From Octopus vulgaris (Eukaryota): a stretch of 64,000 nucleotides of DNA. The translations under genes were made by a program, and so were the position numbers. Each line of letters opens with the position of its first letter. Position 1 is the first letter of the stretch. Positions 27,501 through 31,099 of this stretch are shown here, piece by piece. The notes under the pieces are model-generated. The model saw only the letters and a program-made list of their open reading frames with translations. It was not told the DNA's origin and made no database searches. The DNA lies in contig OX597822.1 in assembly GCA_951406725.2 (NCBI GenBank), positions 103,974,001 to 104,038,000 of the forward strand. Direction: 5' to 3'.

Positions 27501-27885
27501 TGGAAGCACTCCGTCGGTTACGACGACGAGGGTTCCGGTTGATCCGAATCAACGGAACAGCCTGCTCGTGAAATTAACGTGTAAGTGGCTGAGCACTCCA
27601 CAGACACGTGTACCCTTAACGTAGTTCTCAGGGATATTCAGCGTGACACAGAGAGTGACAAGGCCGGCCCTTTGAAATACAGGTACAACAGAAACAGGAA
27701 GTAAGAGTGAGAGAAAGTTGTGGTGAAAGAGTACAGCAGGGATCACCACCACCCCCTGCCGGAGGCTCGTGGAGCTTTAGGTGTTTTTCGCTCAATAAAC
27801 ACTCACAACGCCCGGTCTGGGAATCGAAACCGCGATCCTATGACCGCGAGTCCGCTGCCCTAACCACTGGGCCATTGCGCCTCCA
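27501..27885 (-). mobile_element. SINE family B (main form)
   Basis: Full length; TSD TTGTGCATATA. Confidence 0.92.
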
Positions 27886-28440: not shown

Positions 28441-28472
28441 CATACATACATATACATACATACACACACACA

Positions 28473-29560
28473 GCGTCAAAACAAGAGAAGCAGAGAGAAG
28501 AGAGCTTCATTTGATCCGATGTGTTCATCAAGGTCAGATGACGAGATGGGAAGAACATGTTGAGAGGAAGATAAGTTTGGATGAGATGTGGAAGTGGACG
28601 ACATCTCGGCTGAGTTTCCTGATTCGTTCGTCTTATGATGTTTTGCCATCACCTACGACTCTAGTAAGATGGAACGTCTTAGAGAATGACATCTGCAAAT
28701 GTGGAAAGGTCGGTACACTAAAACATATTCTTTCCAACTGTTCATTAGCATTGAACAGGTACACATGGAGGCACAACTTGGTCCTTAAGGTTATCTTCAA
28801 TGCTATAAAGAACCAAATTCATCTCAACAACACTGAGGAAAAACCGTTAAAAGTACCATCAAGAGATTTCATTACCTTCGTGCGACCAGGTCAGCGGATC
28901 CGTTTCAAGAAGAAGATCAAGAAACTTCCTGAGAAAAATGAAAAGTGGAACGGCTATTGGGAGGTAACTGCAGATTTACCTGGGTGCCAGGTTTTCTTTC
29001 CCATCCCAGTTTCTAAAAAATACAGATATTTTGATGTGGTGTGAAAGAAAGAAAGTTGTAAATATAGTCTAGCTAACGGTTGCTCATGAAGATAATATGG
29101 ACACCGCTCGGGCTCGAAAATTGAACCGTTATGAAAACCTCCTCGAGGAATGTGAAGACGCAGGCGGGAAAGCGGAACATTTTCCTATCGAAGTCGGATG
29201 TAGAGGGTTTGTAGGACACAGCGTGAGACGACTGTTGTTATCGTTAGGCCTAACTCATCGTAAAGTCAATACCACCAATGACTGATATCCAATCTACAGT
29301 GGAGAAGGCTAGCCACTGGATTTGGTTAAAAAGAGACGATGAGCGATGGCTAGAAGTATATTGAGTTCTTCATAACCAGCTGATTTAGCAAGCGGGGCCT
29401 CATATCAGTGAGGGGGCCGGTGCACATTGATGCCGTTGAGAGGTAGGCCCCGAAACGGCGCGCATTCTCTCCTGATGACCCCATACACTTGCTAGCTTCC
29501 GGTATACGGAGCTTTTAACTGGTAGCACTTGCATGTGCAAATTGTTTGCAAGACATCTAG
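28473..29560 (+). mobile_element. 5'-truncated HERO-like RLE non-LTR retrotransposon (zinc knuckle, PD-(D/E)xK nuclease, 3' UTR)
   Basis: QGQMTRWEEHVERKIS..RLSFLIRSSYDVLPSP..CKCGKVGTLKHILSNC..RYTWRHNLVL; LTVAHEDNMDTARARKLNRY..PIEVGCRGF; EKASHWIWLKR; stop at 29362-29364. Confidence 0.85.
29386..29494 (+). ncRNA. Non-circularly permuted (pseudoknotted) hammerhead-like RNA in LINE 3' UTR
   Basis: Stem III TGCCGT(29431-36)/ACGGCG(29455-60); H17=U29437; stem I GAGAG(29438-42)/CTCTC(29467-71); GAAA 29452-55; CTGATGA 29472-78; stem II GGGGCCT(29394-400)/AGGCCCC(29445-51); closing helix TAGCAAG(29386-92)/CTTGCTA(29488-94). Confidence 0.7.
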
Positions 29561-30171: not shown

Positions 30172-30554
30172 TGGAAGCACTCCGTCGGTTACGACAACGA
30201 GGGTTCCGGTTGATCCGAATCAACGGAACAGTCTGCTCGTGAAATTAATGTGTAAGTGGCTGAGCACTCCACAGACACGTGTACCCTTAACGTAGTTCTC
30301 GGGGATATTCAGCGTGACACAGAGAATGACAAGGCCGGCCCTTTGAAATAGAGGCACAACAGAAACAGGAAGTAAGAGTGAGAGAAAGTTGTGGTGAAAG
30401 AGTACAGCAGGGATCACCACCATCCCCTGCCGGAGCCTCGTGGAGCTTTAGGTGTTTTCACTCAATAAACACTCACAACGCCCGGTCCGGGAATCGAAAC
30501 CGCGATCCTACGACCGCGAGTCCGCTGCCCTAACCACTGGGCCATTGCGCCTCC
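30172..30554 (-). mobile_element. SINE family B (main form)
   Basis: Full length; TSD TAATGAAGGAATGT. Confidence 0.92.
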
Positions 30555-31099
30555 TAATGAAGGAATGTACTGACCTGATGGACAGGGAAGCTGATGATTC
30601 ATTCCATTCCATAAATAGACAAGGTTTCACCAACGTAAAGAGCAGTAGGTGCGATCTCTCAGAGAATATACGGAAGTCCTGAAGCTGCGTCTGCTAAGCG
30701 TTAGAAACAGCCGATTCTTATTACTCAAAGCGAGGCATGTACCACGTATGTGGCAGGCGAAAAGAATAGTCGTTATGTTATAAGAGAGATTACGTACTCT
30801 AAACCTTTGCTCTGCAACCTATTTTCACTTGCGGTACACAAATATTTTTTTTCAAAATTCGGCGGAACACCTAAACTAGAAGTGTAACTAAAGGTAGAGG
30901 AGAAAACAATTATATTCAGGTTACACTGCGGCATACCTAGCATCGTCACGTGACGCATCAGTGTGCCACGGCCTACTTGTTGCGGAGCAATGATCTAAAC
31001 TATTGTGATGGCCACTGCGCAGCACCTTTTTACTGGTAGTTTTGGGATAAATCTGATGGTTTTTATGCCTCGTTTCTTCAGAAACGATTCTTTGTATTA

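Follow-up and report, generated by a model that had tools for sequence, protein, structure and literature searches.

We propose, with moderate confidence, that the tail of a HERO-type LINE in the Octopus vulgaris genome holds a conserved split-core hammerhead ribozyme, which likely cuts after position 29437 of the window (the whole 64,000-nt stretch of DNA analysed here) and likely turns tandem transcripts into unit-length circles that serve for copying.

Results

A HERO-type element and its remnant in the window

The copy in the window is a dead fragment with a single site. Its parts, with helices placed by comparison across homologues, are as follows:

28470..29559, + strand: 5'-truncated copy of a HERO-type RLE LINE with broken frame; unit positions 2769-3738 followed by 1-122 of the 3,738-nt unit (alignment to the unit)
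28478..29364, + strand: remnant of the ORF end, with motifs that read as a CCHC knuckle and a restriction-like endonuclease region; frameshifts and stops; stop codon at 29362-64
29386..29397, + strand: predicted 5' strand of helix a, GGGG (29394-97), with the extension TAGCAAG (29386-92); placed by comparison across homologues
29398..29412, + strand: predicted hairpin h, which forms one of the junction's four arms; 5 G in the window copy against 6 in some copies, leaving one C unpaired
29413..29418, + strand: predicted stem II 5' strand GGGGCC, apart from CUGAUGA; its first G is the G10.1 equivalent and is G in 35 of 35 types
29419..29424, + strand: predicted 5' strand of the helix tying stems I and II, pairing with 29461-66; one G>A change in the window copy
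29431..29443, + strand: block S, with stem III 5' strand (29431-36), UH (29436-37) and stem I 5' strand (29438-42); predicted cut 29437/29438
29446..29460, + strand: block G, with stem II 3' strand, GAAA (29452-55) and stem III 3' strand (29455-60)
29461..29478, + strand: tying helix 3' strand (29461-66), stem I 3' strand (29467-71) and CUGAUGA (29472-78)
29479..29494, + strand: predicted helix a 3' strand CCCC (29479-82), directly after A9, with the extension CTTGCTA (29488-94)
29495..29559, + strand: remainder of the tail with a ragged element end without poly(A) and a putative zone of internal priming; the tail leads directly into the 5' UTR in long copies

The linker from stem I to stem II measures 2 nt in this copy. 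The letters and positions that a preliminary description had assigned to stems III and I, UH, GAAA, CUGAUGA and TAGCAAG/CTTGCTA are all in place, and the motif does start (29386) 21 nt past the stop codon at 29362-64. Besides, the suggestion that GUU at the site might be a decayed GUC proves correct, given that the 30 best copies carry UC in 27 cases, UU in 2 and UG in 1. Within the same genome, we found 42 matches at 96-100% among the 40 scored of 2,305 candidates, while a 17-nt anchor has 916 exact matches. In the window, the element lies between two copies of a SINE-like repeat of ~380 nt (27503-27885 and 30172-30555), which are nearly identical.

In a natural long copy, the unit measures 3,738 nt and contains 1,175 open codons as well as an RT domain (RVT_1, PF00078, E 7e-19). 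Motifs read from the translation give a single ORF with zinc finger, RT, CCHC and RLE. The nearest solved RTs are those of LINE-1 and R2, both of them distant; by eye, diagnostic stretches of the RT recur in HERO-1_BF and HEROTn, though not in R4-5_BX (PMC7650587 supplement), and close relatives occur in fish and lancelet. On such sequence features the element is called HERO-type here. The flanks are unrelated in the 100 listed of 387 3' ends, pointing to mostly non-site-specific insertion, as described for HERO (PMC4640811). A second family, F2, has 31-35% protein identity.

Two further observations concern long insertions. In their 5' UTR, GGAAAGAC recurs five times at intervals (L185:4453-4541, unit 154-242), several of these repeats being predicted as hairpin loops; GGAAAGAC repeats also stand after the tail in L066, L072, L095, L099 and L103 and are kept in distant families, and a protein-binding or translation element is a possible reading of them. 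Just upstream of one long HERO-type insertion lies another RT-bearing LINE with an intact 1,134-codon ORF (L131:981-4382).

A split hammerhead core conserved among relatives

From sequence and comparison, the layout runs a-h-II(5')-tie-S-G-tie-C-a. The strand after CUGAnGA pairs upstream, as helix a, and not as part of stem II; upstream, helix a is followed by hairpin h and then by the 5' strand of stem II. A four-way junction delivers the separate stem II strand to the core, and A9 exits into helix a.

Related metagenome loci (80) were obtained via protein alignment and read with a custom parser, which recovered the complete layout from 42 loci as well as from two families of the octopus genome itself; the 48 parsed rows reduce to 35 distinct types below 80% identity. 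Since this parser admits only sequences with GAAA and C[U/C]GAnGA, the test rests on frequency: 42 of 68 related 3' UTRs have the core on the sense strand and 0 of 68 on the antisense strand, well above what chance would give. GAAA is kept in the 35 types; CUGAnGA is exact in 34 of the 35 types and CCGAUGA in one, with all four bases occurring at N7. Position 17 is A in 16 types, C in 12, U in 7 and G in none, although the parser permitted G. Depending on the helix (a, h, II, III or I), 31-35 of the 35 types form its first four pairs, several pair types occurring per position, and four-of-four pairing falls from 0.80-0.97 to 0.07-0.14 when strands are swapped between types.

The four-way junction leaves no base unpaired in 28 of 35 types, and the closing pair of stem II is G-C in 33 and G-U in 2, with the G coming from the upstream strand in 35/35. 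In 26/35 types the base after A9 is unable to pair with 11.1, so that a classic stem II would have no closing pair; the classic SGC register was tested and rejected. Because the partners had been picked by the parser, the upstream segment was shuffled 100 times as a control: 28 of 35 types have a real junction that scores above every shuffle, and in 4 types it is weak. The tying helix has at least 5 pairs in 33 of 35. Stem II would stack on the core, because its G-C closing pair is conserved and the first pair of helix a is free. A k-turn signature between stem III and the tying helix is present in 17/35 types and absent from the window's family. In a quick protein tree, one branch comprises 42 motif rows out of 59 (9 are too short and 8 have no parse), and the other branch 1 weak motif row out of 22.

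The comparison bears out the central claim of the preliminary description: the 3' UTR of this HERO-type LINE holds a hammerhead core that is permuted in a non-circular way. The core has two pseudoknots, and its helices covary across homologues. Several details need amendment. The stem II 5' strand does lie upstream and split from CUGAUGA, but homologues place it at 29413-18 and not at 29394-400. The GGGGCCT chosen there is complementary to AGGCCCC, yet across homologues it represents the GGGG of helix a plus the 5' arm of the hairpin, and this register was likewise rejected in the 35-type comparison. The long-range helix TAGCAAG/CTTGCTA is present as well; its proposed role of bringing CUGAUGA next to stem II gives way to that of extending helix a of the four-way junction. 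The tying helix between stems I and II, 29419-24/29461-66, was overlooked altogether. As for known families, no hammerhead model matched in an Rfam scan of the motif in the window; the order S-G-C is that of the published type SGC.

Taken alone, the motif's stretch in the window is unremarkable (z = -1.05 in single-sequence folding). Its minimum-energy fold is not a hammerhead and buries CUGAUGA in another helix, the program being unable to model pseudoknots, which neither single-strand nor two-strand folding can show. The z-score and the missing Rfam match would suit a chance arrangement of short motifs in a GC-rich UTR. The sense and antisense counts (42/68 against 0/68) and the swap and shuffle controls refute this explanation, to which we assign hardly any probability, and on this comparative record we are practically certain that the split-core fold is real.

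Additional sequences resemble parts of the motif. In the outgroup branch, L104 and L110 have GAAA and CCGAUGA in the same order with a weak or absent parse, possibly a divergent form. Other repeats of the type GAAAC..CTGATGA (L035-38, L046-50) were tried and gave no parse to the split layout. Hairpin h (window 29398-29412 and homologues) contains GAUCA or AUC(A/G/U)G in 16/35 types; UGAUCA is a self-complementary sequence, and pairing of AUCAG with the core's CUGAU could act as an off-switch.

Genomic 5' junctions at the predicted cut site

A nick in the RNA at this site predicts that some insertions begin there. The junction sample consisted of all 79 copies with the 17-nt anchor that differ 18 nt upstream; 21 of these run on, 26 have internal indels and 32 show 5' junctions. 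Fourteen of the 32 junctions carry no element letter 5' of the site and two carry one letter, placing 16/32 at the site or one base off it, while the next peak, of 5, falls at an AT microhomology at -12. The peak at the site has a P of 6e-8 when counted strictly and of 7e-5 when CpG decay is allowed for, and the short copies that start there end at the normal 3' end. Among the first 100 of 118 copies in another sample, read by eye, 11 junctions lie at the site, and no other position from +11 to -4 has more than 2; these partly overlapping copies show no comparable peak downstream of the site. The two samples have 7 copies in common and are not independent. F2 shows the pattern more weakly: among 95 read by eye, 5 fall at the site and 4 stop one base short of it, while no other position, +7 with its 3 included, exceeds 3.

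T precedes the site in 13 of the 14 exact junctions, and T microhomology with a GUU source copy is a possible cause of these junctions; a GUU site occurs in only 5/100 copies (by eye). Target-site duplications were not clear in 17 of 20 short copies, and the other 3 lie in simple repeats. The junctions point indirectly to cutting, and we consider it very probable that the fold cuts RNA after 29437. Among the 916 anchored copies, 16 stop at the site, i.e. ~98% read through and ~2% are short, so cutting of the template is rare or repaired. The transcript processing suggested earlier, taken as simple processing of the 3' end, is unsupported because copies end ~116-132 nt past the predicted cut site and ~98% read through it. 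Fourteen contig sets presumed to derive from RNA contain the stretch; 4 of them, aligned to it, show neither an end nor a start signal, which assembled contigs cannot give.

Many copies, among them L223, L228, L231, L242, L243, L249, L261 and L268, have short internal deletions extending from immediately 5' of the site into hairpin h, which suggests template slips across folded RNA.

Layout of long copies and the case for a circular template

The 3' ends of copies are ragged and have no poly(A). At 20 tail-to-5'UTR junctions, the 3,738-nt unit is arranged head-to-tail with no fixed start: 16 of the 20 long insertions begin at varying positions up to 1,855 nt upstream of the site, 4 begin in the tail and 0/20 begin exactly at the site. 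The start of the 5' UTR has 29 matches, a sample that takes in nearly all copies and not truncated copies only, and 25 of these continue into the tail; the remaining 4 leave right after the 14-nt anchor and may be chance. Tandem copies carry one ribozyme motif per unit, and the ORF start comes after the tail in 5 of the 23 metagenome loci that are long enough to tell.

In long copies the motif adjoins the 5' UTR, just upstream of it. This position would fit an upstream copy that is cut to set the 5' end of a linear template, which is how R2 and L1Tc employ their ribozymes (PMC6765202). Such a role seems very unlikely here: none of the 20 long insertions begins at the upstream site, which 16 of them read through, and the downstream copy would also be cut.

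Repeat identity was assessed in 13 of the 20 long insertions, the other 7 having no usable second repeat (two of them are likely one duplicated locus). Non-CpG changes found in exactly two repeats fall into the same insertion in 14/32 cases vs 1.3 expected, and come from 6 of the 13 insertions. An insertion's own second repeat is closest or tied closest in only 3/13, and older insertions show no overall closeness. Tandem layout and shared private changes are what one would expect from more than one round on a single template molecule; gene conversion could be an alternative source of the shared changes.

Two loci deserve separate mention. At L194 (G000:C2:193235800-193245700), 4 of 6 private changes common to both repeats are A to G on the sense strand, no more than a hint at RNA editing of one template. 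L134 (G000:C29:27347353-27347883) and L188 have local tandem repeats of 157-160 nt over part of the ribozyme, whose break points do not lie at the cut site.

In the mechanism that we propose, a transcript through a more-than-unit copy would hold two ribozymes and be cut at both. The released 3,738-nt monomer would have half a ribozyme at each end, clamped by four helices (a, II, tie and III) that would keep the ends aligned; by our own count, ~29 pairs would hold these ends, where classic types leave one stem. The clamped ends could then be joined by the reverse reaction of the ribozyme or by a host ligase, and the element protein would prime reverse transcription at an internal position, ~116-132 nt past the site. 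On a circle, reverse transcription would pass the joint and its own start and yield long copies; on a still-nicked RNA, it would run off after ~120 nt and yield short copies (~2%). The HERO-type element is probably copied from circular RNA and not from a normal linear message, and a covalent circle is the template that we favour, albeit with reservations.

The main rivals to a sealed circle are a clamped nick that is jumped by the RT and a fold that is kept for protein binding. In the former case, the ribozyme would cut and the monomer would never be sealed; its ends would be base-paired and the RT would jump the nick as if on a circle. This would fit every genomic pattern, and the R2 reverse transcriptase is reportedly able to copy across non-continuous templates. 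However, template jumps usually leave scars, and the read-through junctions are clean: the first 100 copies, by eye, have no extra bases at the site, and a 1-nt insertion is present in one of the 79 selected copies. We consider a jumped nick improbable.

In the latter case, the fold would be kept mainly as a platform on which the element's protein binds and primes, with cutting as a rare by-product or with RT pauses in its stead, and long copies would be linear read-through of gene-converted tandem parents. This would accommodate the ~98% read-through, the competing fold predicted for the window copy and the k-turn signature in 17/35 types, which suggests protein binding, and it would match the finding that hammerhead cleavage is dispensable for in vitro insertion of a Penelope element (PMC11167929). 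Yet all catalytic letters and the exclusion of G from position 17 are kept in the 35 types, and the junction peak lies at the single predicted bond and not at a helix edge. Besides, linear templates would shorten over generations, but overhangs reach 1,855 nt. A platform without a circular template appears unlikely to us.

The same fold outside HERO

A high-copy T-rich repeat (L039, L041, L042, L273-L302; e.g. G000:C1:7029715-7030315), with 3,288 first-look candidates, has the same split-core layout, a perfect four-way junction and a GUU site. This non-coding repeat of the same genome gave no HERO protein match, and the fold is therefore not confined to HERO. Two copies of the T-rich repeat lie 882 nt apart in L303, like in a retrozyme. 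At 2 of 29 loci the repeat stands tail-to-tail with RT ORFs on the other strand, which are Penelope-like by their motifs and may hint at a link between the repeat and Penelope.

With less assurance than for the octopus element itself, we lean towards a wider reading in which an autonomous LINE clade uses self-made circular RNA by means of a seventh, split-core hammerhead topology that clamps its ends for ligation, while the fold would also drive non-HERO repeats and may rank among the most abundant unrecognised ribozymes of animals.

Discussion

Eckert et al. (2023) described hammerheads as six orders of three blocks, in which CUGAnGA is assumed to stand directly before its stem II strand (PMC10085705). 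The split core breaks this rule, and hammerhead searches based on the six permutations therefore miss it. The SGC RNAs of that study stem from metatranscriptomes and, in the available part of the paper, none comes from the genome of a known organism; a term search of its supplement text, as far as available, did not return 'HERO' (PMC10085705). As far as literature was found, the octopus motif is apparently the first non-circularly permuted hammerhead in animal genomes. A literature search covering few subscription journals, and without Repbase Reports, found no report of a split-core hammerhead and no ribozyme, tandem layout or circular template described for HERO.

Should the circle model be true, a LINE would be copied from circular RNA by internal priming and without poly(A). 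The annotation of HERO ends would then change, and RLE LINEs would be linked to Penelope and retrozyme biology. Besides, a ribozyme with clamped products is a candidate tool for making circular RNA.

Type-SGC hammerheads (HRIMA-1 and variants) have the block order S, G, C in common with the HERO fold (PMC10085705), and likewise a short stem I-to-II linker, a helix that connects stems I and II on their other sides, and two pseudoknots. Their block C is unbroken (PMC10085705), whereas in the HERO fold A9 and 10.1 are separated by a four-way junction, which amounts to an SGC cycle opened inside block C. As it departs from the rule of an unbroken block C, the HERO fold would work like SGC without being a member of this type.

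At the level of the element, the octopus LINE agrees with the HERO clade (HERO-1_BF, HEROTn) in its one ORF with N-terminal zinc finger, RT, CCHC and RLE, and in dispersed insertion (PMC7650587 supplement, PMC4640811). R2, from the RLE group, is a non-LTR retrotransposon with self-cleaving RNA (PMC6765202), as the octopus element probably is. However, the ribozymes of R2 and L1Tc belong to the HDV-like class, sit at the 5' end and define a linear 5' end (PMC6765202), whereas no long copy of the HERO element starts at its site (0/20).

Penelope-like elements and retrozymes share with the HERO element a terminal-repeat hammerhead, tandem or partial-tandem copies, internal priming and proposed or shown circular RNA (PMC6765202, PMC11167929, bioRxiv 10.64898/2026.07.22.740005). 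Specifically, circular RNA is known to accompany the hammerheads of retrozymes and has been proposed for those of Penelope elements (PMC6765202; bioRxiv 10.64898/2026.07.22.740005), and internal priming was shown for a Penelope element (PMC11167929). While these systems use type I or III hammerheads and a GIY-YIG protein or no protein (PMC6765202, PMC11167929, bioRxiv 10.64898/2026.07.22.740005), the HERO element belongs to the autonomous RLE LINEs; its core is reversed and split, and base pairing would hold the ends together after a cut.
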